Source: Gemmatimonadota bacterium
GTDB taxonomy: Bacteria; Gemmatimonadota; Gemmatimonadetes; Gemmatimonadales; GWC2-71-9
Length of the DNA stretch: 64,000 nucleotides
Direction of reading: 5' to 3'
Assembly: GCA_036679645.1 (NCBI GenBank)
Contig: JAZDCY010000098.1
Span: 28,426-92,425 of the forward strand
Shown here: one piece after another, positions 33,143-54,273 of the stretch
Numbering within the stretch: position 1 is the stretch's first letter
Layout: each line of letters opens with the position of its first letter
Program-made: the position numbers and the translations under genes
Notes under the pieces: generated by a model
The model's database searches: none
What the model saw: the letters and a program-made list of their open reading frames with translations, nothing else
Told to the model about the DNA's origin: nothing

Positions 33143-34093
33143 ATGACGCGAAGGGTCTTGGTTTCTGGAGGGGCGGGGTTCATCGGCTCCCATATAGCGG
33201 AACAGTATCTCGAGAACAGTTACGAGGTCACTGTGCTCGACGACCTCTCGAGCGGCAAGCGGGAGAATGTCCCCAACAGGGCAACCTTCGTGCAGGCCGA
33301 CATCGGCTCATCTGAGGCGCGCAAACTACTCGCGACGGGTGGTTATACTGTACTGAATCACCAGGCCGCACAGATGGATGTGCGCGTCTCGGTGCGCGAT
33401 CCGATGCTCGACGCACGCACCAATCTCCTGGGCTTGCTCAACCTCCTCGAAGGCGCTCGTGCGGGCGGCGTCGCCCGCGTGGTCTTCGCCTCTTCCGGTG
33501 GAGTCGTGTACGGGGAGAGTGATGAGTTGCCGCACAGCGAAGGGGCGCGTAAGCTGCCCGTCTCGCCCTACGGTGTCTCGAAGCTCGGGTCGGAGTTTTA
33601 TCTGGTCCAGTACGCGCTACTGCACGGGCTTACGGTGCGGTGTCTCCGATATGCCAACGTGTACGGTCCGCGTCAGAGCCCTCACGGGGAAGCCGGCGTC
33701 GTCGCCATATTCGGCAACAGGTTACGGCACGGTGAGGCGATCACGGTGTACGGCGATGGGGAACAGACCCGTGACTACGTGTTCGTAGGCGATGTGGCCC
33801 GAGCCAATCTCCTCGCGACGACCGACGAGCTTGGCGTTCCGACGTCGATTGACGACGTAGCGTACAACGTAGGGACCGGACGCGAGACCAGCGTCAACGC
33901 GCTCGCCGCGGCGCTCATCGAGGCATCGGGTGTGACCGTTCCCATCGAGCAGGCCCCGGCGCGGCCGGGAGAACTGCAGCGCAGTGCCGTGGGTGTGCAC
34001 AAGGCCGCCGAACGGCTCGGCTGGAAACCCGAAGTGTCGTTGGAGGACGGGTTGCGCCGCACGTACGAGTGGATTTGCCAGGTGGCGATGTGA
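33143..34093 (+). CDS. NAD-dependent epimerase (UDP-glucose 4-epimerase-like)
   Basis: GGAGFIGSH, AAQMDVR.SV, SPYGVSK, RYANVYGPRQ.PHGEAGVVAIF. Confidence 0.85.
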   Translation: MTRRVLVSGGAGFIGSHIAEQYLENSYEVTVLDDLSSGKRENVPNRATFVQADIGSSEARKLLATGGYTVLNHQAAQMDVRVSVRDPMLDARTNLLGLLNLLEGARAGGVARVVFASSGGVVYGESDELPHSEGARKLPVSPYGVSKLGSEFYLVQYALLHGLTVRCLRYANVYGPRQSPHGEAGVVAIFGNRLRHGEAITVYGDGEQTRDYVFVGDVARANLLATTDELGVPTSIDDVAYNVGTGRETSVNALAAALIEASGVTVPIEQAPARPGELQRSAVGVHKAAERLGWKPEVSLEDGLRRTYEWICQVAM

Positions 34094-34800
34094 TGTTACA
34101 GGTCGGCGGGGCGCTGCCCAGTTCTCCGTGGGAACTCGTGGCGACATCTAGTGGAGCAACCAAGTTCGTGCTGCTCGTGCTCGTGTCTTTTTCCCTGTTG
34201 AGCTGGTTTCTCATCGTGCTGAAATGGTGGCAGTTCCACCGCGTGCGCCGGGAAGGTGAGCGGTTCTTCGACTCGCTCGAGCGCACCAGTCGACTCGAGG
34301 ATGCGTACCACGCGGTCATGAAACTGCCGCCATCGCCATACGGTCGCGTGCTGCGCGAGGGCGTGAACTTCTTCTCCGAACTGCGTCCCGGCGCGCTTCA
34401 GGGTACAGATACGTCCGCCGCAACGCTGACCTCAACCCAACTCGAGGCGCTCCGGATGGTGCTCGCGAAGGAGATCAGTGCGGAGCGTGACCTGATGGCG
34501 CGCTTCCTCACCTGGCTCGCCACGATCGGTTCCGTGAGTCCGCTACTGGGTCTCCTGGGTACTGTGCTGGGTGTGATGGACGCGTTCCTCGGCATCGCGG
34601 CGGGTGGGTCGGGGAACATCTCCACTGTGGCGCCCGGGGTGGCGGAAGCGCTGACCACGACCGTCGCCGGTCTTGCGGTCGCTATTCCCGCCGTCATCGC
34701 GTACAACCTCCTCGTCAACCGGCTCGGCCTCTTCGCGGGTGAGATGGAAGGCTTCGCGCACGAGATCGTCGGCACACTTGCGCGCGAGGGGCGGCTCTAG
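34093..34800 (+). CDS. tolQ: TolQ (MotA/TolQ/ExbB family)
   Basis: LATIGS.SP.LGLLGTV.G, VAPGVAEAL.TT..GLAVAIPA; first gene of tol-pal order. Confidence 0.9.
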   Translation: MLQVGGALPSSPWELVATSSGATKFVLLVLVSFSLLSWFLIVLKWWQFHRVRREGERFFDSLERTSRLEDAYHAVMKLPPSPYGRVLREGVNFFSELRPGALQGTDTSAATLTSTQLEALRMVLAKEISAERDLMARFLTWLATIGSVSPLLGLLGTVLGVMDAFLGIAAGGSGNISTVAPGVAEALTTTVAGLAVAIPAVIAYNLLVNRLGLFAGEMEGFAHEIVGTLAREGRL

Positions 34801-34801
34801 G

Positions 34802-35221
34802 GTGCGGTCGGGGCTGCGTGGCCACGGCGAGTTGCCACTCATGGCGGATATCAACGTCACGTCGCTCGTGGACGTCGCGTTCGTGTTGCTGATCATCTTC
34901 ATGATCACCGCGCCAATCATGCAGGGCGGCGTAGATGTCCAGTTGCCGCGCGCAGAGGCGCGCCCGCTACAGCCAAACGAAGGGCTGATCGTATCGATCG
35001 ACCGGCAGGGCCGCATTTACGTCGATGAGACGCCGCTAACGTACGAGGACTTTCGGGCGGCCTTCCCGGCCATGGTGTCCTCCCGCAACCCGTCCGGCGT
35101 CTACCTGCGCGCGGACCGTCGGGTCGAGTATGGGGTCGTGGTGCGTGTGATGGCAGTCATGACCCAGGCGGGTGTGACCAACCTCGGCGTGGTAGCCGAG
35201 GAGGAGGACATCCGGCGGTGA
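34802..35221 (+). CDS. tolR: TolR (ExbD/TolR family)
   Basis: DINVTSLVDV.FVLLIIFMITAP, VYLRAD..V.YG; start could be ATG 34841. Confidence 0.9.
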   Translation: MRSGLRGHGELPLMADINVTSLVDVAFVLLIIFMITAPIMQGGVDVQLPRAEARPLQPNEGLIVSIDRQGRIYVDETPLTYEDFRAAFPAMVSSRNPSGVYLRADRRVEYGVVVRVMAVMTQAGVTNLGVVAEEEDIRR

Positions 35222-35922
35222 GACATGCGGGGCGTGCCCGCAAGCAGATTCGCGCTGCGGCGACCGGCAGGCACGTCGCATCGATCGGCACGGCGACGCT
35301 TCACGTCCTGGTGGGGATCGTGCTCTTCGGTGCACCGCGCGTGGACGGACGCCAGCTGCCCCCGGTGTACCGTATCGAGTTGGTGGCCGCGCCTAAGCCA
35401 AATCCGCAGGCGCGCCGCGCACCCCAGGCCGTCGAGCGGCCGGCCGAGCGCGTTGCGCCCACCCCGCGTCCGCGCCGCACGTCTGTTGCGGAAACGCCGC
35501 CGCCTCCGGAAGCGGAGCCGGCAGTGGAACGGGAGCCCGCCCCTCGGACCACCCCCGAGGCGGAGCCCCTGCCAGACGAAGAGCCCTCCACCGGCGACGA
35601 TCCCGCCACCGTCCGCGTCGAGGGTCTGGCCTTTCGATACCCCGAATACTTGCGCAACGTCGTCGCACAGATCTACCGTCGCTGGCAGCGTCCCGCCGGT
35701 AACGTTGCGCTGCGCGCGGAGGTGCTGTTTCTGATCCATCGTGACGGGTCGATCTCGAACCTGCGTTTCGTCACCCGGTCGGGGAGCTTTGGCTTCGATC
35801 TCGAGGCGCAGGGAGCTGTCGAGGCAGCGGGGAACGTCGGTGCGTTCGGTCCCCTTCCAGAAGGGTACCCCAACGACGTGCTGCCCGTGAGCTTCTTCTT
35901 CGACCCCAAGCAGGTGCGGTGA
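35218..35922 (+). CDS. tolA: TolA/TonB-family energy transducer
   Basis: N-terminal TM with His, Pro/Glu-rich linker, C-terminal I.RDG.I...RSG...FD..A..AV...FGPLP. Confidence 0.75.
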   Translation: MRHAGRARKQIRAAATGRHVASIGTATLHVLVGIVLFGAPRVDGRQLPPVYRIELVAAPKPNPQARRAPQAVERPAERVAPTPRPRRTSVAETPPPPEAEPAVEREPAPRTTPEAEPLPDEEPSTGDDPATVRVEGLAFRYPEYLRNVVAQIYRRWQRPAGNVALRAEVLFLIHRDGSISNLRFVTRSGSFGFDLEAQGAVEAAGNVGAFGPLPEGYPNDVLPVSFFFDPKQVR

Positions 35923-37280
35923 TCTCCGCGCGCCCCCGCCCCCGCTCCCGCCCCACCATCTGGTTGCTGGGGCTCGCTGTGGCCAGTGGGCCGGCCGCCG
36001 CCCAGGACTCGATCCCGCCCCTCGATCAAGGGGTGCGGGTGGGCATCACCTACACGCCCGGCGTACGTCCCGGCATGCTCGTGCTGGGCGGGACGCGCTC
36101 GGTCGCCTTCGATTCGATTCGCGCAATCCTCGCCCGAGATCTGGACTACAGCGACCGTTTCGAGATGATCACGCTGCCGCAGGACGACAGCCTCGTGCTG
36201 GGCCTCAACAGTCCCGACGGGACGGCTCACGGCGGCTCGCTCGCTACGTTCGTCAATTATCCGTTATACGCGGCCCTGGGTGCCAACTACGCGGTTCACG
36301 TGCGCCCACCGGTGGATTCCATACTGCGCGTCCTGATCTACGACGTGCTCGGAGAGGGCGTCCGGCAATCCATCTTGCTGCGCGAGATGGACCCCACTCA
36401 TCCGGACTTCCGCATGGCGGTTCACCGGGTGAGCGATGAGGTCGTACGTGCGACCGCGGGCGCACCCGGGGTGGCGGCCACGCGATTCCTCGTGCTGCGC
36501 CGGCGGCGGGTCTACCGGGTCGATTACGACGGGGCGGACATTGCCTCCGTGTCATCGCCCGACGTGCGGGCTTTTTCGCCCACATGGGGCGCGCGGGGTC
36601 TGCGCGCGGTCTACACGGAGTTCCGTGAGACGGGTGGGTCGATCTACTTCCACGATCTCGCATCGGGCGAACGCCGGCTGATCCCACCGACCGCGCAAGC
36701 GCTCAACTACACGGCGAGGCCGTCACCCGATGGGCGCATCCTCGCCTTCAGCCGTTCAGGGGAAGAGGGAACGGATATCTACACGTACGACCTTGCTAAC
36801 GACTGCTGCATGCAGCGGCTGACAGTGGGCCGGTTCTCGGACAACCTCAGTCCGACGTTCAGTCCCGACGGCAGGCAGATCGCCTTCGTTTCGACCCGCG
36901 CAGGGCTGCCGCAGATCTATCTCATGTCCGCCGACGGGACTGGCCAGGAGCTGTTCGCCCCATTCGATTATGGTGTGACAGGCAGCTCCAACGCGCCGGA
37001 GTGGTCGCCGGACGGGTTGTCGCTGGCCTTTCACCGAGACGTAGCCGGCAGTCCCCAGGTGTTCGTGATGGAGATCGCGACGCGGACGGTACGCCAGCTT
37101 ACGAGCGCGGGACGCAACGAAGATCCGACGTGGGCGCCCGACGGCCGGCACATAGCCTTCGTGTCGAGCCGGACGGGGACGCGGCAGGTGTGGGTCATAG
37201 ATCTGGATACGGGGCGGGTCCGGCAGGTGACTCGATTTGGGGATACCAGGCTTCCTGCGTGGTCCCCTCGAATTGATTAA
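35919..37280 (+). CDS. tolB: TolB beta-propeller protein
   Basis: Signal peptide; DLDYS.RF; PD40 repeats SPDG/WSPDG/WAPDG; ends PAWSP. Confidence 0.9.
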   Translation: MISARPRPRSRPTIWLLGLAVASGPAAAQDSIPPLDQGVRVGITYTPGVRPGMLVLGGTRSVAFDSIRAILARDLDYSDRFEMITLPQDDSLVLGLNSPDGTAHGGSLATFVNYPLYAALGANYAVHVRPPVDSILRVLIYDVLGEGVRQSILLREMDPTHPDFRMAVHRVSDEVVRATAGAPGVAATRFLVLRRRRVYRVDYDGADIASVSSPDVRAFSPTWGARGLRAVYTEFRETGGSIYFHDLASGERRLIPPTAQALNYTARPSPDGRILAFSRSGEEGTDIYTYDLANDCCMQRLTVGRFSDNLSPTFSPDGRQIAFVSTRAGLPQIYLMSADGTGQELFAPFDYGVTGSSNAPEWSPDGLSLAFHRDVAGSPQVFVMEIATRTVRQLTSAGRNEDPTWAPDGRHIAFVSSRTGTRQVWVIDLDTGRVRQVTRFGDTRLPAWSPRID

Positions 37281-37346
37281 CTTAGTCGATTGAAGCCCCC
37301 CAACAACTTGGCTGTAGAACCATCATTCAAAGGGAGTGGACCCGAT

Positions 37347-37970
37347 ATGCGCATCACCATCCCCCTGACGATCAGCATCGCTGCGATCATCGTCGCAGCG
37401 GCCTGCGGCGGCGCGCCACCTCCGCCCGTGGTACCGGTGGTCGATTCGACGGCGGTTCGCGATTCGATTGCGCGGGAAGAAGCGACACGTCGGGCCACCG
37501 CGGATAGCTCCCGTCGGGCTCGGGAAGAGGCCGAACGGATCACTGCCGAGCGGCGTGCGGACTCGCTGGCGGTCGTGGCGCGCGAGACGGAGCGCGTGCG
37601 AAGCATGTTTGCCACTCGTATTCACTTCGATTTCGACCGGGCTGACATTCGCAGTGAAGATCGGGCGACGCTCGACATGAAGATCGCCATCATGCAGGCG
37701 AATCCCGCGCTGCGGATTACGATCACCGGCCACTGCGACGAGCGCGGGTCGGACGAGTACAACATCGCGCTGGGCAATCGCCGCGCGCTGGCCGCTCGCG
37801 AGTACATGGTCTCGCGCGGCATCTCTGCAGATCGGGTCATGAGCGCTTCGCGCGGAGAAGAGGATCCGGTCGATGCAGGACACACCGATATGGCGTGGGA
37901 GCAGAATCGTCGCGATGAGTTCTCCCTCTCGGCGGGCGGGCAACAGCTGCGCGCGCCATCGGGGATGTGA
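37347..37970 (+). CDS. pal: Peptidoglycan-associated lipoprotein Pal
   Basis: Lipobox AAAC; HFDFD, GHCDERGSDEYNIALG.RRA, S.GEE.P, NRRDE. Confidence 0.93.
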   Translation: MRITIPLTISIAAIIVAAACGGAPPPPVVPVVDSTAVRDSIAREEATRRATADSSRRAREEAERITAERRADSLAVVARETERVRSMFATRIHFDFDRADIRSEDRATLDMKIAIMQANPALRITITGHCDERGSDEYNIALGNRRALAAREYMVSRGISADRVMSASRGEEDPVDAGHTDMAWEQNRRDEFSLSAGGQQLRAPSGM

Positions 37971-38746
37971 GATTCCTCATTAGTCTCACGGCGGCGGGCG
38001 TCACCTTGAGCGGATGTGCGCTCAAGGGTGACGTCCGGCGTGTCGAACGGCAGCTGCAGGAGTTTCGAGCTGAGGCAGCCCGCGCGGATTCCGCGCGGGC
38101 TGCCGAGTTGGATAGCTCGTTGGCAGCGGTGATCGCCCTGCTCCAGGCGGTAGATGACTCGCTGACGAGTCAACAGAATCAGTCGCGTCGCATGCACGCA
38201 GAGACGCGTGCGGACATGATCGATGTGCGGCGACAGCTGGTGCAGATCCAGGAGCTGACCGGTCAGAGCCAGCAGCGGCTGACCGAGTTGCGGCAACAGC
38301 TGGAACGGCGCGATCGGCAACCGGTCGCCATCGGACCCGAGTCCGGGCCGGGTGACCCCGGGGTAGTCGTCCCCGGGCTCCCGCCACCCGAGGAGCTGTT
38401 CTCGCTGTCCCTCTCGCAACTCCGGCGCGGCAGCCCTGGTGCGGCGCGCACGGGGTTCTCCCAGTTTCTCCAGGCGTACGCCTCGCATGAGCGAGCGCCA
38501 GACGCGCAGTACTTCATTGGGGAGTCGTGGGCGCGTAGCGACGTCGATTCGGCGGCGGCAGCCTATAATGCGGTAGTGGCCAACTACCCCGATTCACCCC
38601 GTGCTCCGGCATCGCTCTACAAGCTCGGCCTGCTCGCCGAGCAGGAGGGGGACGCGTCGGTCGCACGCGTGTTCTTCGAGCGCGTGATGGCTGGGTATCC
38701 CCGGTCGGAAGAAGCGGCGCTCGCCCGCGAGCGGCTCAACCGGTAG
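37967..38746 (+). CDS. cpoB: CpoB/YbgF (coiled coil + TPR)
   Basis: Lipobox LSGC; coiled coil; APDAQYFIGE, YP.SPRAP.SLYKLG; follows pal. Confidence 0.85.
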   Translation: MRFLISLTAAGVTLSGCALKGDVRRVERQLQEFRAEAARADSARAAELDSSLAAVIALLQAVDDSLTSQQNQSRRMHAETRADMIDVRRQLVQIQELTGQSQQRLTELRQQLERRDRQPVAIGPESGPGDPGVVVPGLPPPEELFSLSLSQLRRGSPGAARTGFSQFLQAYASHERAPDAQYFIGESWARSDVDSAAAAYNAVVANYPDSPRAPASLYKLGLLAEQEGDASVARVFFERVMAGYPRSEEAALARERLNR

Positions 38747-38775: not shown

Positions 38776-41700
38776 ATGGGTCGTAAGGAAGCCAAGGGCG
38801 AAATGCCCTTCCTGGATCACCTCGAAGAACTCCGTTGGCGTATTCTCTGGAGCCTCCTGGCGCTGGTCGTCGGGTCGGTGATTGGGTTCGTCGTTGTCCA
38901 GCACTTCGACGTGCTCGGGCTACTCAAGCGCCCTATCTCCCCGTTTCTTCCCGATGACAAGCTCTTCATTACCCGGCCGACCGATGCCTTCATGCTGACG
39001 ATGAAGCTCGCGGTGGCGGTCGGAGTAGTGCTGGCAGCGCCGGTGCTCGTGTGGCAGGCGTGGGGCTTTTTCTCGCCTGCGCTGCATGAGAAGGAGAGGA
39101 AGTTTTTCATCCCCGCGTCCATCGCGGGGGTCGTCCTGTTCGGCGTTGGTGTATGGGTCGCCTACGAGGTCGTGCTGCCGAAAGCGCTCGGGATTCTCTT
39201 GACCAGCTTCCAGCGGTCCGACCTGGAGTTCATCATCACGGCCAACGAGTACTTTGGTTTTGCGACCCAACTCGTGCTGGCCTTCGGCGTCATGTTCGAG
39301 TTGCCGCTCGTGATCGTAATGCTGGCGGCGTTTCGCCTCGTGAACCCAAGTTTCTTCGCTCGGAATAGGCCGTTCGCGCTGATCATTGCGGCGGTCATCG
39401 CGGCGTTCCTCACGCCGCCGGACGTGCTGTCGTTGCTCATGATGCTCGCCCCGCTCCTCGTGCTGTACGAGACGGGGATCCTGGTCGGGCGACTCGTATG
39501 GAAGTCCCGCAGCCGCACCATCGGGACGGCTGCGTTGCTCGCGTTCGCGCTGCTGCATCCGTCGTCGGCGGAGGCGCAGGAACGACGGCGCCCCCCCCCC
39601 CCACCCCGCCGGCCCCGGCCAGACAGTCTGGTGCCGCGGGTTGAACAGGACTCGTTACGCCGGGCCACCCGGGACTCGCTGGCAGCGGGCGGCCGCATCG
39701 ATACGGCGACGGCCCGCCAGCTCGGTTTACCGACGGGCCCGTCTCGGGCCTTTCCACAACCCGACTCCGTCATGCGCGCACTGTTCGAGATGACGGGGTA
39801 CCGCGCGATACGCTACGCTGCCGATAGCGTCGTGCTCCACGCGGACAGCCAGCAGATCGATCTCGTCGGCAGCGCGCTCGTGCGGCAGGATGAGGCGACC
39901 CTCGAGGCCGATACCGTGCTCTTCCTGCAAGCGGACGGCGAACTGCTGGCCAGGGGATCTCCCAAACTGTTCGAGGGGGCGACCGTCCTGGTCGGCGAGG
40001 AGATGCGCTATCTGACGGACGAGCGGCGAGGGTTCATAGAGGGGGCGCTCACCAACTTCCAGCAATCCGGCGTGGACTGGTTTCTCCGGGGAGGTATCTC
40101 GGTGGACTCCGCATCGGTCCGGCTGTATTCGGGCCACAGCGACGTCACGAGCTGCGACCTTCCGGATCCGCACTACTACTTCAGGTCGGGCTCGGTCAAG
40201 TGGGTCACCAACACCATCATGGTCGCCCGGCCCGCGGTTCTCTACGTACACGATGTCCCGGTGCTGTGGCTCCCGTTCATCTTCCAGGACATGCGTCCCG
40301 GGCGGCGCACCGGCATCCTCGTCCCACGGTTCGGCATCAACGACCTGGTCCGTCCCAACGCTGGGTATCGGCGACACATCTCGAACGTGGGTTTTTACGT
40401 TGTGCTGAACGATTACGTGGATGTGCGCACGTGGCTCGACTGGTTCGCGAAGAACTCGGTCACGACGAACGGTGAGCTGCGGTATCGCTGGCGCGATCGC
40501 TTCGTGAGCGGGGGGCTCTCCATCTCCCGGATCTTCGAGTCGGGCATCGGCGGTGCCCCGGGCGGGCGTTCTATGCGGCTCAGGTGGGGACACCAGCAGA
40601 ACTTCGATCAGCGAACCCGGCTCAACGCGTCGGTCGACTATGCGACCAGTTCGCGCGTGGTCGAGCGCAATGCGGTGGACCCGTTTCTGGCCACCGCAAC
40701 GCTGGGCTCCAATATCAACTTCTCCAAGCAGTTCGCCTGGGGAACACTGGGGATTGGTGGCAGCCGCCGGCAGGAGCTGACGTCCGGTTCGGTCACGCAG
40801 ACCTTCCCCACGCTCTCGCTCACGCCGGTGCCGATCGACATAGCCGACAATGTCACGTGGTCGCCGTCCGTCAGTATCAGCAACGCGCGCGCGTTCGGGC
40901 AGCGGGCGGGCGTGGTGCAGATTCCCGCCGGCCCGGGCGATACGATCTTGCCTATCGATTCGCTCTTCTCGGCGTCACGCACGACCGACATCCAGATCAG
41001 CACGCCGCTGCGTATTGGGCGGTGGAACTGGGCCAACTCGTTCTCGATCCGCGATTTCGTCACCCGAACGCGATCCGTGGAGAAAATTGCGGATTCGGCT
41101 AGCGCTGACACCGTGACACGTTTCGTGGGGGTCGATTTCAATACTGGTATCGACTGGAACACCGGCATCAACCTGCCGGCGCTGTTTCCGTCGTCGTGGA
41201 AGCTGCAACCGCGACTCGGGATTCAGAACACCACGAGCGGCCCCTTTCTGCTGCGCAATCGGAACACCGGGGGACGCTACGTCCGGCAGGGCAAGCGGGT
41301 CTCGCTCGCCGCGGGCCTCACGCCCACGTTCTTCGGGTTCTTTCCCGGTGTCGGGCCCGTTGGGCGCATCCGCCATGCGATCACGCCGGTGGTGCAGTGG
41401 AGTTGGTCGCCCGAAGCCGAAGTTCCCGAAGCCTATGCCCGGGCGCTCGATCCGACGGGACGCAATCCCGTCCGACGCAGCCCCGCGCAACATCGCATCA
41501 GCCTCTCGCTCAATCAGACCTTCGAGGGGAAGTTTCGGCCGCCGCCGGGTGACACGAACACCGATCCCCGCAACGCGCGCAAGATCAAGCTGCTGTCACT
41601 GCAAACGTCCGCCATCGCGTTCGACTTCGAGCAGGCAAAGGACTCGGGCCGGACCGGCTGGCTGACCCAGAACCTCACCAATCAGTTCACCAGCGATCTT

Positions 41701-42336
41701 CTGCGCGGGTTCTCGCTTAGCACGACGCACGATCTGTGGGACGGCCCGGTGGGGACCGACGAGGCACGGTTCAGCCCGTTTCTGACGCGCATCTCCGCGC
41801 GGTTCAGTATCTCGGAGTCAACCATCACGGGGATTCTCGGGTTGATCGCCGGTCGTTCCGCACCCGAACCGACGGAGCCCCCGGACGCACCCGACCCCGC
41901 CGTCGCCGAGCCGGTGCCACTGATTCCCGAAATCCGGGGCGACCGGTTTCGCGATTTCGATCGGCGTCCCCGGGCTCCGGCGGGAACGCGGCGGCCGTTC
42001 ACCGCGTCGGTCACATTCGACGATCAGCGCTTCCGCCCGATCGAGAGTGAGGGCGACGCCCCGCCGGTGAGCCGCGATGCCAATCGCACCTTGGGGCTCT
42101 CGTTTCAGTTCGATCCGACCGCGCACTGGTCGGTCTCGTGGACGACCCAATACAACCTGACCACGAAAGAGTTCGGCCAACACGTAGTGCGGCTCGAGCG
42201 GGATATGCATCGCTGGCGCGCGACCTTTCAGTTCCTGAAGTCACCCAACGGCAACTTCGCCTTCAACTTCTTCATATCGCTCCTCGACCAGCCGGACATT
42301 CGATTCAATTACGATCAGCAGACGCTGACCAGGTAG
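38776..42336 (+). CDS. tatC: TatC fused to an LptD-like outer-membrane beta-barrel
   Basis: aa ~1-241 TatC (MPFLDHLEELR.R, FFSPAL...E, FELP, AFLTPPD, LYE); rest LptD-like (L.ADTV, TSCDLP.PHYYF, PVLWLPF, R.TGILVP.FG, RLERDMHRWRA); no stop between them. Confidence 0.85.
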   Translation: MGRKEAKGEMPFLDHLEELRWRILWSLLALVVGSVIGFVVVQHFDVLGLLKRPISPFLPDDKLFITRPTDAFMLTMKLAVAVGVVLAAPVLVWQAWGFFSPALHEKERKFFIPASIAGVVLFGVGVWVAYEVVLPKALGILLTSFQRSDLEFIITANEYFGFATQLVLAFGVMFELPLVIVMLAAFRLVNPSFFARNRPFALIIAAVIAAFLTPPDVLSLLMMLAPLLVLYETGILVGRLVWKSRSRTIGTAALLAFALLHPSSAEAQERRRPPPPPRRPRPDSLVPRVEQDSLRRATRDSLAAGGRIDTATARQLGLPTGPSRAFPQPDSVMRALFEMTGYRAIRYAADSVVLHADSQQIDLVGSALVRQDEATLEADTVLFLQADGELLARGSPKLFEGATVLVGEEMRYLTDERRGFIEGALTNFQQSGVDWFLRGGISVDSASVRLYSGHSDVTSCDLPDPHYYFRSGSVKWVTNTIMVARPAVLYVHDVPVLWLPFIFQDMRPGRRTGILVPRFGINDLVRPNAGYRRHISNVGFYVVLNDYVDVRTWLDWFAKNSVTTNGELRYRWRDRFVSGGLSISRIFESGIGGAPGGRSMRLRWGHQQNFDQRTRLNASVDYATSSRVVERNAVDPFLATATLGSNINFSKQFAWGTLGIGGSRRQELTSGSVTQTFPTLSLTPVPIDIADNVTWSPSVSISNARAFGQRAGVVQIPAGPGDTILPIDSLFSASRTTDIQISTPLRIGRWNWANSFSIRDFVTRTRSVEKIADSASADTVTRFVGVDFNTGIDWNTGINLPALFPSSWKLQPRLGIQNTTSGPFLLRNRNTGGRYVRQGKRVSLAAGLTPTFFGFFPGVGPVGRIRHAITPVVQWSWSPEAEVPEAYARALDPTGRNPVRRSPAQHRISLSLNQTFEGKFRPPPGDTNTDPRNARKIKLLSLQTSAIAFDFEQAKDSGRTGWLTQNLTNQFTSDLLRGFSLSTTHDLWDGPVGTDEARFSPFLTRISARFSISESTITGILGLIAGRSAPEPTEPPDAPDPAVAEPVPLIPEIRGDRFRDFDRRPRAPAGTRRPFTASVTFDDQRFRPIESEGDAPPVSRDANRTLGLSFQFDPTAHWSVSWTTQYNLTTKEFGQHVVRLERDMHRWRATFQFLKSPNGNFAFNFFISLLDQPDIRFNYDQQTLTR

Positions 42337-42580: not shown

Positions 42581-43744
42581 ATGACACGTTCACTCGTTTT
42601 TTTCGCAAGCTTGCTCGTCGCCGCCGGATGCGATCGTGTGCTCGATTCCGACGTCGATCGACCCGCCAACCTGCGGTATCGCCTGGAGGCCAGCGGCGAT
42701 CCGGAAGCCCCGGCGGGCGTGCTCCTGGAATGGGATGCCGTCCTCACCGCCGATCTCGAGGTGTACAACATCTACTCCCGCGTGGACGATCGGTCGCCGC
42801 TCGATCTGCGCGCATCGACGACATCCACCTCGTTTCACGACGCGGGTATTCCCGATCTCTTCTATGCCGTGACCTCGGTGACAACCGATGGTGACGAGAG
42901 CGACTTCAGCGAAGAGGTCTTCATAGATGAACGGCTCCGGCTACCGGCGCCAAGCTTTCTGAGTTCGACCTCGCTCGACCGTGCCATTCACCTGGAGTGG
43001 GGGGACAATCCATTTCAGTCCGACCCCGAGGGGTTTGAACAGTACCGCGTCTACTCGTCGAGTCTGGACATCGACGTCGGGCTCTGTGGTGACGATTGGG
43101 CGCTCGAGGGCACGACCGTGGCACCTGCATTCTTGGCGGGAGCCCTTACCAACGGCGCGCCGCGCTGCTTTGCCATCGCCGCGGAGACCATCGAGGGATG
43201 GGAAAGCCTATGGTCGGATATCCGGGGTGACACGCCTCGGCCCGATGCCCGCAACGTGATCATCTTCCCGTTCGCGGAGGACGCGAACCGGAGCGGGTTC
43301 CGCTTCTTCCAGGATCTCAATAGCGACGGACTGGCCGGTCCGCTGGAACTGGGCATCATTCGTCCCGGCAGTGCCACCGATATCGATTTCTGGGTGTTCC
43401 GTGATCCCGTGACCGACTCGCTCTTCCTGGTGCCTGAGCGGGCCGGTACTGGAGTGGAGCTATTCGATCCAGTGCGGCCGGTGGAGGACCTGACTTCGAT
43501 CGACGTTGCACCAAACCTCACCTATCGCACGACCGCGATCGTCGCGCTGCCGGGGTTCGGATATGTGTTCGAGACGATCGGTGCGGGCGGATTGCCGCAG
43601 TACGGTGCGCTTCGTCCGACCCACGTCGGCCGCGACTACATGATCTTCGATTGGGCATTCCAGACAGACCCAGGGAATCCGGAACTGCAGATTAGAGGAG
43701 GGCTGCCGACGGCGGGTGCGGGCGGCGTACTGATAAAGAGATAG
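42581..43744 (+). CDS. Acidic lipoprotein with fibronectin-III-like repeats, function unknown
   Basis: Lipobox AAGC; two L.W...Y.[IV]Y...[YF]A[VI]...G.ES motifs; DLNSDG possible Ca-binding loop. Confidence 0.75.
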   Translation: MTRSLVFFASLLVAAGCDRVLDSDVDRPANLRYRLEASGDPEAPAGVLLEWDAVLTADLEVYNIYSRVDDRSPLDLRASTTSTSFHDAGIPDLFYAVTSVTTDGDESDFSEEVFIDERLRLPAPSFLSSTSLDRAIHLEWGDNPFQSDPEGFEQYRVYSSSLDIDVGLCGDDWALEGTTVAPAFLAGALTNGAPRCFAIAAETIEGWESLWSDIRGDTPRPDARNVIIFPFAEDANRSGFRFFQDLNSDGLAGPLELGIIRPGSATDIDFWVFRDPVTDSLFLVPERAGTGVELFDPVRPVEDLTSIDVAPNLTYRTTAIVALPGFGYVFETIGAGGLPQYGALRPTHVGRDYMIFDWAFQTDPGNPELQIRGGLPTAGAGGVLIKR

Positions 43745-43944: not shown

Positions 43945-45441
43945 ATGTCGCCCATCATCCTAGACGGCCACTCTCTTACCGTTGACCAGGTCCTCGCCGT
44001 TGCCCGCCAGCGCGCCGAGGTAACGATAGATCCAGCAGCCGCTGACGCCGCCTCCCGCAGTCGCGCGTTCGTCGATGCGGCTGTTGCCAAGGGCGACGCA
44101 GTGTATGGGATCAACACCGGGTTCGGACGACTTCAGAACGTGCGGATCCCGGATGACAAACTGGTCGAGCTGCAGCGCAACCTGATTCTGTCCCACGTGG
44201 TGGGGCTGGGCGATCCCCTTCCCGACGACGTGGTGCGGGCGACGATGCTGCTGCGGGCCAACGTGCTGCTGCAACCATCGAGTGGTGCGCGGCCCACCGT
44301 CGCGGAGCGGGTGGTGGCACTTCTCAATGCCGGCATCACCCCACTCGTGCCGGAGCAGGGGAGTGTCGGGGCCAGCGGAGATCTCGCGCCCCTCGCGCAT
44401 ATCGCCCAGGTACTGATGGGCGAGGGTTGGGTGATTGAGGACGGCGCGCGCGCGCCCGCCGGGGAGGCACTCGGGGCGGCCGGGATCGAGCCCCTCGAGT
44501 TTCTCCCGAAGGAAGCCCTGTCGTTCATCAATGGGACACAGGTGCAAACCGCGGTGCTGTCGCTGATCGTGGCGGACGCGCGGCGTCTCTGGCGCGCGGC
44601 GTTGGGTGCGGCGGCGATGTCGCTGGAGGCGGTGCGCGGGACGCCGGTACCGTTCGACGAGCGGCTGCACCAGTTGCGACCGCACGACGGCCAGCGCAGG
44701 GCCGCCGCCGTGTTGCGGGAGTTGTTGGAAGGGTCCGAGATTCGGGAATCCCACCGGGAAAACGACCCTCGCGTACAGGACGCCTACAGCCTGCGCTGCA
44801 CGCCGCAGGTGCTGGGAGCGGTGCACGACGCAATCGAGTTTGCCGCGAGAACGCTCGACATCGAGCTGAACGCCGCAACCGATAACCCATTGGTGATCGA
44901 TGGCGCGGTGTTGTCGGGCGGCAACTTCCACGGCCAGCCCATCGCCCAGGCGCTCGACGTGCTCGCGATCGCGCTCACCACGCTAGCCGGTATTGCCGAA
45001 CGGCGGATCGATCGTCTCACCAACCCGGACCTCTCGAGCGGTCTGCCCGCATTTCTCACGTCGGAACCGGGGCTCCAGTCTGGTCTCATGATGGTACAGG
45101 TTGCCGCGGCGGCCCTGGTGGCCGAATCGCGGTCGCTCTGCATGCCGGCCAGCGTGCAATCCATCCCGACGGAAGCGAACCAGGAGGATTTTGTCCCTAT
45201 GGGCATGGCTGCAGCATTCAAGACGCGTCGCATTCTCGCCAATGCGCAACGCGTAGTGGCGGCGGAGTTGCTCTGCGCGGCGCAGGGGTTGGAGTTTCTG
45301 CTACCGCTGCAACCGGGCACGGGCGTCCGCCGGTTACGCGCACGCATCCGCGAGGTCGTCCCGCCGCTGCTGACCGATCGACCGTTGGCGCCGGACGTGG
45401 AGGCGGTGTACGCCATGGTCACGGCGGAAGATTTGGCATGA
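43945..45441 (+). CDS. hutH: Histidine ammonia-lyase
   Basis: [21 protein letters not shown] (MIO), [19 protein letters not shown]. Confidence 0.96.
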
Positions 45442-47053
45442 CGGCGACGGCACGCGTGGTCCGCGCGCCGCGCGGCGCGAGTCTAAGCTGCAAGGGGTGG
45501 GTGCAGGAGGCCGCGCTGCGAATGCTGATGAACAACCTCGACCCCGAGGTCGCCGAACGGCCAGATGACCTGGTCGTCTACGGCGGGACGGGCAAGGCCG
45601 CTCGATCGTGGGAAGCGTTCGATGCGATCTGTCGTACGCTTCGCACACTGGGCAACGACGAGACGTTGCTCGTGCAGTCCGGCAAGCCGGTGGGCGTGTT
45701 TCGGACCCATGAAGAGGCGCCGCGCGTGCTGATCGCGAACGCGAATCTCGTTGGGCGTTGGGCCACATGGGACGTGTTCCGGGATCTCGAGCGACAGGGG
45801 CTCACGATGTACGGCCAGATGACGGCCGGGAGTTGGATCTATATCGGCACCCAGGGAATCCTCCAGGGCACATACGAGACGTTCGGGTCGCTGGCGCGCA
45901 AGCATTTCGGTGGTTCTCTGAAGGGCCGCGTCGTGCTCACCGGCGGCTTGGGAGGGATGGGAGGCGCGCAGCCGCTGGCGGCCACGATGAACGGCGCCGC
46001 GATGCTGGCGGTCGAAGTCGATGCGGCCCGCATCCAGCGTCGTCTGGAGACGCGCTACGTCGACGTGATGACGGCGTCTCTGGACGAAGCGCTGGCGCGC
46101 ATGGACAAGGCGCGCGGTGAGGGCGAAGCCATCTCTGTGGGGCTCGTCGGGAACTGTGCGGACGTGCTGCCAGAGATCGTGCGTCGCGGGTGGAGGCCGG
46201 ACGTCGTCACCGATCAGACGTCAGCGCACGATCCGCTCAATGGCTACGTCCCGCGTGGTTGCTCCCCGGCGGAAGCGGCACGGCTTCGCGCGTCGGATCC
46301 CGCGGTCTATCTCGAGCGGGCCCGCGCGTCGATTGCGACCCACGTGTCGGCCATGCTGGATCTGCAGCGCGGCGGTGCCGTTACGTTCGATTACGGTAAC
46401 AACATCCGCACCGAAGCGCTCGACGCCGGCGTGGCCGATGCTTTCGACATTCCGGGCTTCGTGCCCGAGTACGTCCGGCCTCTCTTCTGTGAAGGAAAGG
46501 GTCCCTTTCGGTGGGTGGTGCTCTCTGGCGAGCCGCGCGATCTGCATAGGACCGACGAGCTGGTACTCGAACTGTTTCCTGAGGACGAGCATCTCGTGAA
46601 CTGGATCCGCATGGCGCGCGAGCGCGTCGCATTCCAGGGGCTGCCCGCGCGCATCTGTTGGTTGGGAATGGGGGATCGCGCGCGTTTCGGACTTGCGCTC
46701 AACGATCTGGTGCGGCGTGGCGACATCTCAGCGCCGGTCGTGATCGGGCGCGATCACCTCGACACGGGGTCGGTGGCGTCACCCTTTCGCGAGACGGAAG
46801 CCATGCGCGATGGATCCGATGCAATAGCGGACTGGCCCATTCTGAACGCGCTGTTGAATACGGCGTCGGGCGCATCGTGGGTTTCGTTCCACCACGGTGG
46901 AGGCGTGGGGATCGGCAACAGCTTGCACGCCGGTCAGGTGATCGTTGCCGAGGGATTGGTGTGGCACGGCACGCCGATGCGGGATACGACGTGGCCTCGG
47001 ACACGGCTCGCGCCCACGGTATCCGACTTCCCATGCGGGAGGAGGCCCACTGA
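45438..47053 (+). pseudogene. hutU: Urocanate hydratase, frameshifted by an apparent ~50-nt deletion at about 46951
   Basis: HutU motifs to HAGQVIVA; the terminal [15 protein letters not shown] continues in another frame to TGA 47053; the usual RVL.NDP segment is absent. Confidence 0.85.
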
Positions 47054-48315
47054 GCACGCTCATCGCCGGCGCGACCCAGGTCGTGACGGCGCGCGGGCCG
47101 GCGCGTGCACGTCGCGGGACCGAGATGGCGGAGTTGGACGTCGTTCCCGACGGGGCGGTGGAAGTGGCGTCGGACGGCTCAATCGCCGCCGTCGGGCCAT
47201 ATCGCGAACTCCGGGCGACGCACACGGGAGAGGTGATCGAGATAGAGGGGGTGCTTTTTCCCGGTTTCGTCGATTGCCACACACACGCGGTATTCGGCGC
47301 CGCGCGTCTGGAAGATCACGAACGTCGTGCCCTGGGCATGGATTACAAGACGATCGCGGCGGAGGGGGGTGGCATCCTCTCCTCGGTCCGCGATACGCGC
47401 GAGCGGTCGAAGGAAGAACTGGTCGATGTCACGCGCCGACGCCTCGACCATCTTCTTGCCCACGGGACCACCACGGTCGAGGTCAAGTCGGGCTATGGGC
47501 TCGAGACGGACACCGAGCTGCGTCAGTTGGCCGCCATCGGTGCGCTGGCGGGTCGGGGATGCCCCAACGTCGTCGCCACATTTCTCGGCGCCCACGAGAT
47601 TCCGCTCGACTCGAGAGCGCGGCGGGACGAGTATGTGGATCTCGTCGTGCGCGAGATGCTTCCGGCCGTGGAGCAGCAGGGGATTGCCCGCTACTGCGAC
47701 GTTTTCTGCGAGCCCGGTGTGTTCACGGTTGCGGAGTCACGCCGTGTGCTCGAAGCTGCGCGCGCTCACGGCCTGGGGCTCAAGTTGCACGCCGACGAAC
47801 TCGACGCTTCGGGAGGAGCGGAACTCGGTGCGGCGCTGGGAGCGGTGAGCGCGGACCACCTGGCCAAGGTGTCAAATGCGGGCATCGCGGCCCTGGCGAT
47901 GGGCGAAACGGTAGCTGTCCTGCTCCCCGGCACGCAACTGTTCCTGGGGCGGTCGGACCGGGCACCCGCGCGGGGACTCATCGAGGCGGGGGCGGCGGTC
48001 GCCCTGGCGACGGATTTCAACCCAGGTAGCGCCCCGGGGATGAGCTTGCCCTTCATGGGGATGCTCGGCGTCTCGCAGCTCGGCATGCGTCCTGCCGAGG
48101 CGGTGATGGCGATGACGGTCAACGGGGCGGCGGCGGTTGGGGAGGCCACGCGGCGCGGGCAGATTGCGCGTGGATTCCGGGCAGACATGGTGCTGGCCGC
48201 GGTCCGCGATTGGCGGGAGATTGTCTACTGGCACGGTGTGAGCCTCGTTAGCGAGGTGTGGGTGGGGGGCGTAGCTTGTCACCCATTGAGGCAACCCGTA
48301 AATTTCGTAGTTTGA
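47050..48315 (+). CDS. hutI: Imidazolonepropionase (probable CTG start)
   Basis: [46 protein letters not shown]. Confidence 0.93.
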
Positions 48316-52017: not shown

Positions 52018-52266
52018 ATGTTCAGCAATATTGGAATGCCCGAGATGCTCGTGATCCTCGTGATCGTGCTTCTCGTATTCGGCGCAAAGCGGCTGCCGGA
52101 GATGGGATCGGCAATGGGGAAGGGCATACGCGAGTTCAAGAAGAGCATCAAGGAAGTGCAGGATCAGGTCGAGAGCGCGGGTGACGAATCCGTGCTTCCG
52201 CCCGATCGCGAGATGGACGCCGCTCCCCGGAGTAGCGACGGTGAGCCGAAGAAGCTGAGCCAGTAG
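52018..52266 (+). CDS. tatA: Twin-arginine translocase TatA
   Basis: IG.PE.LVIL..VLLVFGAKRLPE.G..MGKGIREFKK. Confidence 0.96.
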   Translation: MFSNIGMPEMLVILVIVLLVFGAKRLPEMGSAMGKGIREFKKSIKEVQDQVESAGDESVLPPDREMDAAPRSSDGEPKKLSQ

Positions 52267-52404: not shown

Positions 52405-54273
52405 TCAGAACCCCAGCGCGTTCGGCAGCAGACTGTTATCCGCCGCGTCCCGCTGTGCACGCTCTAGCTGGCGCCGCAGGTCCTGAACATCCGCGTCTCG
52501 CCGCAACGATGCCATCGCGAGTTGCACCCGCTGCTGACCCGCGAGTTGAATGGCCTGCATCCGTAGCAGGTCGAGCTGGGAGACGAAGAGACTCGAATCG
52601 GCCACGATCTTAGCGTCCGGCCGTACGAAGAAGGTGCCGGCGTCGGTGTGAATTGGACCGCTTGTTTCTCCTACCCCCATCGCAAAGGCGGCGCCCGTAG
52701 CCTCAGGCGCGCCCTGGAAGACCGGTGGGAATGACTGCCGCGTGAACCCTGCCGCAGTGCGTGTGGAGACACCGTGGCGCTCAGCTGCCTCTTCGAGCGT
52801 CATCCCAGATGCAAGATCGGATGCGACCTCGCGGGCGATCTCCTCCGTGCGGGTTTGCTTCGCGGCCTGGGTCGCGGCGATACGCGCCGTCCCGCGGATC
52901 TGGTCGAACGGCGGGACGCCTTCCGGTGCCAAGCTGTCGAGTCGGAAGACGTAGTAGGTCGTCTCGGTCTCGATCACCGGTGACGTCATCCCGATATCGA
53001 TATCACCCCCGAACGCCCAGATGCTTGCATCGCCGATGCCAAACCCGCTGCCCAACCGCAGCCGCCCGCCTTCGACAACCGGCGGCGCCTGACCGACGGG
53101 TAACGAGAGCCAGTCGGCCACCTGGTCGAGCGAACCAGGATCGTCCTGCTCGGCAGCGTAGAGATCCAGCGTATCCGCCTTGCTCTCGACCTCATCCAGG
53201 TGGTCGCCCGCCAGCTCGACGGTCACGAGAATGTGCCGCGCGTGGAATGATGTGTCGGTGCGCGATTCGAGCCGAATGATGTGGTAGCCGAAAGGCGTCC
53301 GTACCGGGTCGGACGTTTCGCCGGGCGTGAGTGTCAGGGCCGCGGTCTCGAATTCAGAGACGAACCGGCCCAGCGCAACCTCGCCCAGGTCGCCGCCCTC
53401 TGCGGCGGATACGGAGTCGGCCGATTCCTGGCGCGCCATCCGTTCGAAATCGGCACCGTCTACCAGTTCCGCATGCAGCCGCTCGGCGCGCTCGATCGCG
53501 GCGACCGAATCGGACGCGTTGGGTTGGCGCGAAAGCGCGACGAAGCTGAGGTATGCCGTGGCCGGGCGCGTGAAATCGTCGCGATGTGCGCGGTAATGTG
53601 CCTCGACCTGCTCGTCGGTCAGCGTGACCTCGGAGTCGGGGACCACGAGGTACGGGAACAGGGGTAACACGACCGCGGTCACCGAGTCGTATTGATCGCG
53701 GTAGCGCCGCCAGAGTTGCGCGTCGGAGACATAGATGCCGGCCGTCAGCTGACTGAAGAGCTTGTTGCGGGGGATCTCGTCGCGGTAACGGGCCTCGAGT
53801 GCCAGTAGGAATCCGGGGTCGGTGCTCGACGCCAGGAACCGCTGGTACTTCTGGAGGTCGAACTGCCCCTCAGTCTGAAACTGGGGCGCGTCTATGATCT
53901 CGGGCGGTGGGTAACTCTGAGCCGCCTCGATGACCTCCTGGTCGCTCACTCGAATGCCCCGGCGACGGAACTCCTGACGCAACAGAATGTTCTGGATCAT
54001 GCTCTCGAGGACCTGGTCCTCCAGCGCGCGCTGGTCCTCGAGCGAGGTCGGGATGACCCCCTGTTCGGCGCGGATGCGGTTCTGTTCGTTGCGCACCGCG
54101 GCGTAGAAGGTCGTGACGTCGATGGTCTCGCCGTTGACCTTGGCCACTGTATTGGGGAGAGACGATCCCTGGCCGGTGACGTCCATACCGACCGAGAAAA
54201 TCATCCAGCCGACAAAAGCGACGGCCACGATACCCATGATGTATTTGGCGCTGGCCCGCATAGAGCGCATCAT
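52405..54273 (-). CDS. PpiD/SurA-type membrane-anchored parvulin chaperone
   Basis: N-terminal TM, SurA_N-like region (AKVNG..I), rotamase (F..MARQES.D..SA..GGDLG, S.PVRT.FGYHII). Confidence 0.88.
   Translation of the reverse strand: MMRSMRASAKYIMGIVAVAFVGWMIFSVGMDVTGQGSSLPNTVAKVNGETIDVTTFYAAVRNEQNRIRAEQGVIPTSLEDQRALEDQVLESMIQNILLRQEFRRRGIRVSDQEVIEAAQSYPPPEIIDAPQFQTEGQFDLQKYQRFLASSTDPGFLLALEARYRDEIPRNKLFSQLTAGIYVSDAQLWRRYRDQYDSVTAVVLPLFPYLVVPDSEVTLTDEQVEAHYRAHRDDFTRPATAYLSFVALSRQPNASDSVAAIERAERLHAELVDGADFERMARQESADSVSAAEGGDLGEVALGRFVSEFETAALTLTPGETSDPVRTPFGYHIIRLESRTDTSFHARHILVTVELAGDHLDEVESKADTLDLYAAEQDDPGSLDQVADWLSLPVGQAPPVVEGGRLRLGSGFGIGDASIWAFGGDIDIGMTSPVIETETTYYVFRLDSLAPEGVPPFDQIRGTARIAATQAAKQTRTEEIAREVASDLASGMTLEEAAERHGVSTRTAAGFTRQSFPPVFQGAPEATGAAFAMGVGETSGPIHTDAGTFFVRPDAKIVADSSLFVSQLDLLRMQAIQLAGQQRVQLAMASLRRDADVQDLRRQLERAQRDAADNSLLPNALGF

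Follow-up and report, generated by a model that had tools for sequence, protein, structure and literature searches.

In Bradyrhizobium japonicum, a single gene reportedly encodes both cytochrome b and cytochrome c1; its product FbcH, in an account attributed to Thony-Meyer, James and Hennecke in 1991, is said to consist of a polytopic inner-membrane protein and an exported one with a signal-like internal segment between them, and to be processed into two. In this study, we undertook a computational analysis of a locus of comparable design in a 64,000-nucleotide stretch of DNA (the window) from a Gemmatimonadota bacterium (assembly GCA_036679645.1, here genome G000, comprising 4.05 Mb in 100 contigs and 92.7% complete), a member of the order Gemmatimonadales, where one open reading frame (ORF) encodes TatC followed by LptD. 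As is reported for FbcH, this single ORF encodes two proteins that are separate in relatives, so that the mode is shared while the proteins are not homologous. The products of FbcH are reportedly subunits of one inner-membrane complex, whereas TatC and LptD belong to unrelated machines in two membranes, the second being a large barrel that depends on the beta-barrel assembly machinery (BAM). The Rieske protein of Streptomyces, a product that stays one chain, offers a further comparison. In the available passages of PMC13186574, it is a polytopic protein with an internal twin-arginine translocation (Tat) signal, and it resembles the fusion in that its C-terminal domain is exported by means of an internal signal that follows membrane helices; its signal is of the twin-arginine type, whereas the fusion junctions have an RRxF motif in none of 111 loci and a conserved signal peptidase I (SPase I)-type site. 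The 14-helix tandem TatC of haloarchaea (PMC13673990, PMC13186574) is likewise a natural TatC-containing fusion, and the only one in the available passages of those reviews, but it joins TatC to TatC within one membrane. A TatC-LptD fusion was not found in the part of the literature on TatC, LptD and Gemmatimonadota that was covered, Tat reviews from 2026 and a survey of TatC included, most subscription journals lying outside the search. The separate, adjacent tatC and lptD genes (the latter of the LptD_2 type) of other Gemmatimonadota, our loci L154-L161 and L168-L190, share the gene order, the domains and, for the most part, the small-x-small-Gln signal ending of the fusion, and differ from it in that the fusion lacks the stop and start between them and the basic tail of TatC would now be the n-region of a signal.

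TatC is a six-helix protein whose C-terminus lies in the cytoplasm, LptD is a barrel that is exported through Sec and assembled by BAM, and SPase I requires small residues at positions -3 and -1 on the periplasmic face of the membrane. The TatC-LptD fusion is real and conserved. Its product is, judging from the sequence, probably a polyprotein that is cut by SPase I at AEA-Q268, which would give the two proteins in a 1:1 ratio from one chain. The features of the fused ORF are as follows.

38776..42336, + strand: tatC-lptD fused ORF, 1186 aa (ORF translation, Pfam domains)
38776..39501, + strand: TatC part (residues 1-242) with six helices predicted to span the membrane (profile hidden Markov models (HMMs), alignment, structural model, Foldseek match to 4B4A)
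39502..39519, + strand: basic run KSRSRT, the TatC cytoplasmic tail, predicted to serve as signal n-region
39520..39555, + strand: predicted h-region, IGTAALLAFALL
39556..39576, + strand: c-region HPSSAEA with A265 (-3) and A267 (-1), predicted SPase I site
39577..39579, + strand: Q268, the predicted N-terminal residue of mature LptD, identical in 94/94 aligned fusions
39580..39690, + strand: Pro/Arg-rich linker, variable, of low confidence in the model, also present in the free LptD of relatives
39808..40281, + strand: LptD N-terminal all-beta domain, residues ~345-502, read as a beta-jellyroll (model, Foldseek)
40327..42333, + strand: LptD beta-barrel, residues ~518-1186 (Pfam, model, Foldseek match to the LptDE structure 8H1S)

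As the first-pass annotation of this DNA had proposed, the forward strand has a single stop-free frame of 1186 codons at 38776-42336 that carries both domains. The TatC model of Pfam (PF00902) matched residues 14-226 (E 7e-59, 199.6 bits, cut-off 25.1), TIGR00945 scored 190.1 bits, above its cut-off of 132.7, and the LptD_2 model (PF19838) matched residues 483-960 (E 2e-39, 136.3 bits, cut-off 22.5). The proteobacterial LptD equivalog PRK04423 scored 23.7 bits, far under its cut-off of 944. An AlphaFold2 model of the fusion, obtained from an alignment of 94 fusions, had a mean predicted local distance difference test score (pLDDT) of 82.7 and consisted of the TatC helices, the all-beta domain and a large barrel, with TatC and LptD folded as separate units on either side of a low-confidence link; this link includes a short extra helix at residues 250-258, also of low confidence, and pLDDT fell below 50 at residues 259-303. 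The best 14 Foldseek matches listed were all LptD or LptDE structures, the best being 8H1S (E 3e-25), and the TatC part matched 4B4A and 4HTS with TM-scores by target of 0.81-0.83. In the model, both halves look intact. Residues F98 and E107 of the TatC part were invariant in all 94 aligned fusions, and we take them to be F94 and E103 of Escherichia coli TatC from their spacing and sequence context rather than from an alignment to the E. coli protein. In E. coli numbering, F94 and E103 are given as twin-arginine-binding residues of TatC in the available passages of PMC13673990. The TatC part is predicted to function in Tat transport with a TatA partner, and the LptD part to insert lipopolysaccharide (LPS) with LptE; profile searches of G000 had matches to LptE, LptF, LptG and LpxC, as well as to the signal peptidase LepB. 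E. coli LptD has two jellyroll-barrel disulfides, a trait of proteobacterial LptD and not of the LptD_2 family as such. The fused protein has one Cys only (C460) and is hence without them. A Cys pair at residues 388 and 415, in the LptD N-terminal domain, was present in 86 of the 94 fusions and jointly lost in the other eight, including the one in this window, and it is likely a disulfide that some lineages have dropped.

The junction segment quoted in the first-pass annotation, KSRSRT to HPSSAEA-Q, was found exactly at 39502-39579 (residues 243-268). For comparison across relatives, we used 111 distinct fused loci, of which 109 (this one included) are from the bacterium's own family, f1, and two from another family, f2, ten duplicates having been dropped. 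The anatomy of a basic run, a hydrophobic core and a terminal [AGSCVTLI]-x-[AGS]-Q was present in 110/111, and the A-x-A-type site is conserved in relatives; the one exception ends in GWTQ. Control windows further down the same proteins had this motif in 679 of 5550 cases (12%), and its occurrence at the junction is more than chance. Position -1 was occupied by A (100), G (8) or S (2), and position -3 chiefly by A (47), L (46) or V (9). The n-region, which varied from ~6 to >60 residues in length, had a net charge of at least +1 in 106/106. Of the columns lying between E232 and D330 in the 94-sequence alignment, Q268 alone was invariant; the linker that follows had a mean conservation of 0.29. 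Neither a twin-arginine RRxF motif nor a lipobox was found at any of the 111 junctions, by which a Tat-type or lipoprotein signal was ruled out, and this absence points to Sec and SPase I. The signal starts at residue 243 and not at the N-terminus, hence it is not a classical signal peptide and at most functions like one.

The Gln that follows the predicted cleavage site is also a habit of the genome as a whole. When 1768 ORFs of G000 were scanned with a crude heuristic, 142 N-terminal signal peptides were predicted, 76 of which (~54%) had Gln at +1 against a background of 3%, so that the junction site carries the organism's own signal peptidase signature. The free LptD signals of relatives had the same small-x-small-Gln ending in 46 of 54 split loci. 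A comparable Q-rule, by which Gln directly follows the SPase I cleavage site in >48% of substrates, is described for Bacteroidetes in the available text of PMC5837995; the ~54% that our crude heuristic gave for G000 is inside the Bacteroidetes range, whereas Gemmatimonadetes go unmentioned in the main text of that paper.

A query spanning the junction matched 190 of 200 other genomes of family f1, of which 159 were fused, 17 split but adjacent and 6 apart, with 8 unassigned, mostly at contig ends. The first-pass annotation had named a pair of separate genes in all close relatives as the pattern that would speak against it, and this is not what was found. Most fused calls rest on a stop-free match, and for 109 the sequence itself was read. 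Among the 159 is G067 (L033/L142), which is fused at the junction and has a TAA at about codon 423 inside the LptD part, representing either a sequencing error or a broken gene. Stop-free junctions were found in 0/16 genomes of the sister family f3, in 2/71 of the sister family f2 (G035 and G218) and in 0/23 of the other families of the phylum sample, where tatC and lptD are mostly adjacent. Two adjacent genes are nearly always the arrangement in the sister families. In G000 itself, tblastn and HMM searches gave a single TatC match and a single LptD_2 match, both in the fused ORF, and did not find a second tatC or lptD in this 92.7% complete genome; among the fused genomes of the family that were checked, 37/38 likewise had no TatC other than the fused one, two single-contig genomes (G086 and G094) being among them. 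The earlier expectation of no separate copy was thereby upheld for G000. Two genomes, G103 and G035, have a second, free tatC besides the fusion. In addition, tatC and lptD lie on different contigs in G009, G014, G093, G148, G152 and G190, and in loci L028 and L032 lptD has its own signal-like N-terminus.

At the protein level, at least 361 relatives of 652-2076 aa, among 7998 scored candidates, matched the junction, and the TatC and LptD_2 Pfam domains were both present in 120/120 of the relatives listed. Nearly all of the listed fusions that have a name are called TatC alone, which explains an annotation gap in that lptD is hidden. One listed protein with both domains, P0053, is 1567 aa long, ~390 aa longer than the rest, and is possibly a three-part fusion.

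The arrangement in split relatives across the phylum suggests how the fusion may have come about. The tatC stop often overlaps the lptD start (GTGA or ATGA) or abuts it, and in loci L016, L157-L160 (f3) and L161 the tatC stop is in frame with lptD. Five f3 loci have an in-frame tatC stop with a GTG start at once after it, so that one substitution or read-through would give a fusion. A FastTree tree was obtained for 161 loci (109 fused and 52 split, with two short loci omitted), being built on the tatC-lptD sequences themselves. With a split root, parsimony required 11 changes, namely a single basal fusion in f1, eight re-splittings and two fusions in f2, whereas 36 events were needed if fusion only, with no splitting, was allowed. 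Family f3 was nested within f1 with weak support, and the re-splittings number seven if f3 is a sister family. A 40-row IQ-TREE tree agreed with this history. The approximately unbiased (AU) test rejected a single clade of the fused f1 rows (p 4e-68) and a single clade of the two f2 fusions (p 8e-28), for groups that were picked after the first tree had been seen. We therefore infer one fusion at the base of f1, seven to eight re-splittings at the same spot and two separate fusions in f2. The re-split lptD genes once more begin with a start codon of their own and carry a normal signal that ends in Gln; remnants at the end of some re-split tatC genes, RSIGT and NTISGT among them, match the start of the fused h-region. 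Re-splitting seven to eight times, with an ordinary signal peptide left each time, is a point for the polyprotein, and its repetition also argues against a special function of the fusion, which may itself be near-neutral. The two f2 fusions are from single genomes each and contain an ATG in frame within the junction; they may represent errors or cases of internal starts. Four re-split loci of genus g54 (L045, L049, L051 and L056) are peculiar in that the only ATG, GTG or TTG giving a full signal is a GTG 25 nucleotides inside tatC in the -1 frame; alternatives for these loci are a CTG or CTA start at the stop, or a -1 frameshift.

For a polyprotein cut by SPase I, the following sequence of events would apply. 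The Sec translocon would insert the six TatC helices co-translationally, after which the basic cytoplasmic tail of TatC and the h-region would act as a seventh helix, N-in/C-out, opening Sec for the 919-residue remainder. LepB would cut after A267, and mature LptD, with Gln as its first residue, would be chaperoned to BAM and pair with LptE. TatC would stay in the inner membrane with a 25-residue stub, which an intramembrane protease may trim. In terms of origin, tatC and lptD would have been overlapping or abutting neighbors that lost the stop and start between them, the LptD signal being kept with the TatC tail as its n-region. Several points weigh against this reading. The invariance of Q268 is flattered and partly self-fulfilling as the aligner anchors on Gln, and the 110/111 overstates the number of independent cases because kin are not independent. 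The n/h/c test was a heuristic rather than SignalP, and conservation of the site reflects selection on the site, not proof that every chain is cut. The glutaminyl cyclase PF05096 was not found in G000, with the search limited to that type and to a 92.7% complete genome. Finally, an in-frame ATG, GTG or TTG is present between LYE and the h-region in 92/111 fused loci.

The last of these points would suit an internal in-frame start, a GTG or ATG near the end of TatC helix 6, from which LptD would be made separately with a normal cleavable signal, an explanation that we regard as improbable. Shine-Dalgarno (SD) use is modest in G000 (33% of first-ATG upstream regions compared to 18% mid-gene), so that starts without an SD are plausible and the lack of one at the junction says little, and at codon -11, counted from YE, 108/111 fused loci have ATG or TTG. 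The first-pass annotation had seen no in-frame ATG or GTG with an SD directly before the segment; this holds for the codons, the nearest ATG, GTG or TTG before the h-region being the GTG of V229 (39460) inside TatC helix 6, with a non-canonical CTG at L236, while the part concerning the SD is weak given the modest use. On the other side, 19/111 loci, this window among them, have no ATG, GTG or TTG between LYE and the h-region, and at no single site from YE to the basic run do more than 33% of loci carry a start codon. The GTG share of Val codons is 56% at the end of helix 6 versus 53% in the rest of tatC (Fisher p 0.38), and ATG is less frequent at the end of helix 6 than in other parts. We rejected the ATG conserved at -11 as an internal start since it is also present in 34/54 split tatC genes and has no SD enrichment (-3.3 versus -3.6 kcal/mol); it looks like a protein constraint. 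This lack of a conserved or enriched start codon across relatives is a stronger argument against an internal start than the missing SD. In addition, the absence of a stop means that a full-length chain would be made even with an internal start, and its TatC would still need the same cut.

Quite improbable as well is an uncleaved tether across the envelope, in which the seventh helix would be an anchor, the LptD barrel would be in the outer membrane and its N-terminal domain would be tied to TatC. The geometry is not impossible, as the LptD N-terminal domain points into the periplasm and is preceded by a ~45-residue low-confidence linker, and the position of the gene after the tol-pal cluster might also be counted in favor of a tether. 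However, a tether needs neither small residues at -3 and -1 nor Gln at +1, yet these are kept in 110/111 loci. Measured from the Gln to a fixed LptD position, the median spacing was 49 residues for fused loci (n=109, range 33-68) and 47 for split loci of f1 and f3 (n=29; p 0.10), and a longer linker in fusions was not found; the linker is thus ordinary LptD sequence rather than a spacer acquired to bridge the periplasm. The extra helix was also the least hydrophobic 19-mer tested in the protein (1.17, compared to 1.39-2.67 for the TatC helices; the mean 19-residue value of the extra helix over the fused loci was 1.75), and the seven to eight re-splittings and the six genomes with the genes apart speak against a tether too. 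Another possibility is that the chain is split by a different protease or linker site, or by partial LepB cleavage, in which case free and tethered LptD would coexist and the mixture would have a regulatory role. Cutting may be slow for a signal peptide that lies embedded behind a polytopic protein, and the wide range of n-region lengths also counts in favor, but an SPase I-type site is the linker's only conserved feature and we consider such a route very improbable. The chance that the fusion is an assembly or sequencing artefact joining two genes is close to nil. The 100-contig assembly and a run of 12 C near the junction could raise that suspicion, against which stand the 159 fused genomes from many genera, including the single-contig G086 and G094, and an identical contig at depth 91; the artefact is already refuted by the relatives. 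In one public sequencing run, the whole stretch lay within that single contig with zero differences, and the stop or missing DNA that was looked for at the junction was not seen in it; this run may be the source of the assembly itself, and independent support for the frame is from the 159 fused relatives. Runs X2 and X3 gave patchy cover only, and the contigs of a relative in X4 break at 39502-39504 with none bridging the junction. The C12 run (39591-39602) encodes a poly-Pro stretch just behind Q268, and it is not the cause of the fusion because of that position and because relatives are fused without it. A slip in the C12 run would cut off LptD; no change in its length was present in the contig of run X1, and the X4 contig of the relative is 6 nucleotides shorter here, in frame.

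If the fused chain is indeed cut as proposed, a core outer-membrane barrel would be exported co-translationally from inside a polytopic protein, without an N-terminal signal of its own or post-translational targeting, which bears on the hand-over of substrates among Sec, LepB and BAM. More broadly, we think it probable that, throughout this family, the sole Tat receptor and the sole outer-membrane translocon for LPS are made as a single polyprotein, whose barrel follows six inner-membrane helices in export and is set free by signal peptidase, in the manner of viral polyproteins in the endoplasmic reticulum. This proposal includes at least three origins of the fusion and seven to eight reversals, and signal peptides would serve as reversible joints through which overlapping genes with products in different compartments could fuse cheaply. 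A natural polyprotein of inner plus outer membrane would be added to a short bacterial list, and its recurrent gain and loss could be compared over more than 150 genomes.

The following neighbors of the fused ORF in the window provide its context.

34069..38746, + strand: tolQ-tolR-tolA-like-tolB-pal-cpoB cluster (HMM matches)
52018..52266, + strand: tatA, the only TatA/B-family match in the genome

The upstream cluster has matches to MotA/ExbB, ExbD, TonB_2, PD40, OmpA and YbgF/CpoB, and the end of cpoB is separated by 29 nucleotides from the ATG of the fusion. The first-pass annotation had placed the fusion at the end of the tol-pal operon: the cluster is indeed directly upstream, and co-transcription is presumed. 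A scan for promoters yielded none, and terminator-like sites were about as many as chance would give (6 versus 5.2 expected). The tatA gene is 9.7 kb downstream of the fusion and no separate tatB was found in G000, which together with tatA being the sole TatA/B-family match suggests a TatA-TatC system. Beside tatA is a 622-aa ORF at 52405-54273 (- strand), which we presume, judging by eye, to be a membrane-anchored chaperone of PpiD/SurA type. After the fusion, at 42581-43744 (+ strand), is a 387-aa ORF that has no Pfam or NCBIfam match and carries a lipoprotein-like signal ending in AAG-C. Further downstream, an 863-aa urocanase ORF at 45438-48029 (+ strand), whose C-terminal Pfam match ends at residue 506 (model position 159/196), overlaps a 456-aa ORF at 46945-48315, possibly as the result of a frameshift or a fusion.

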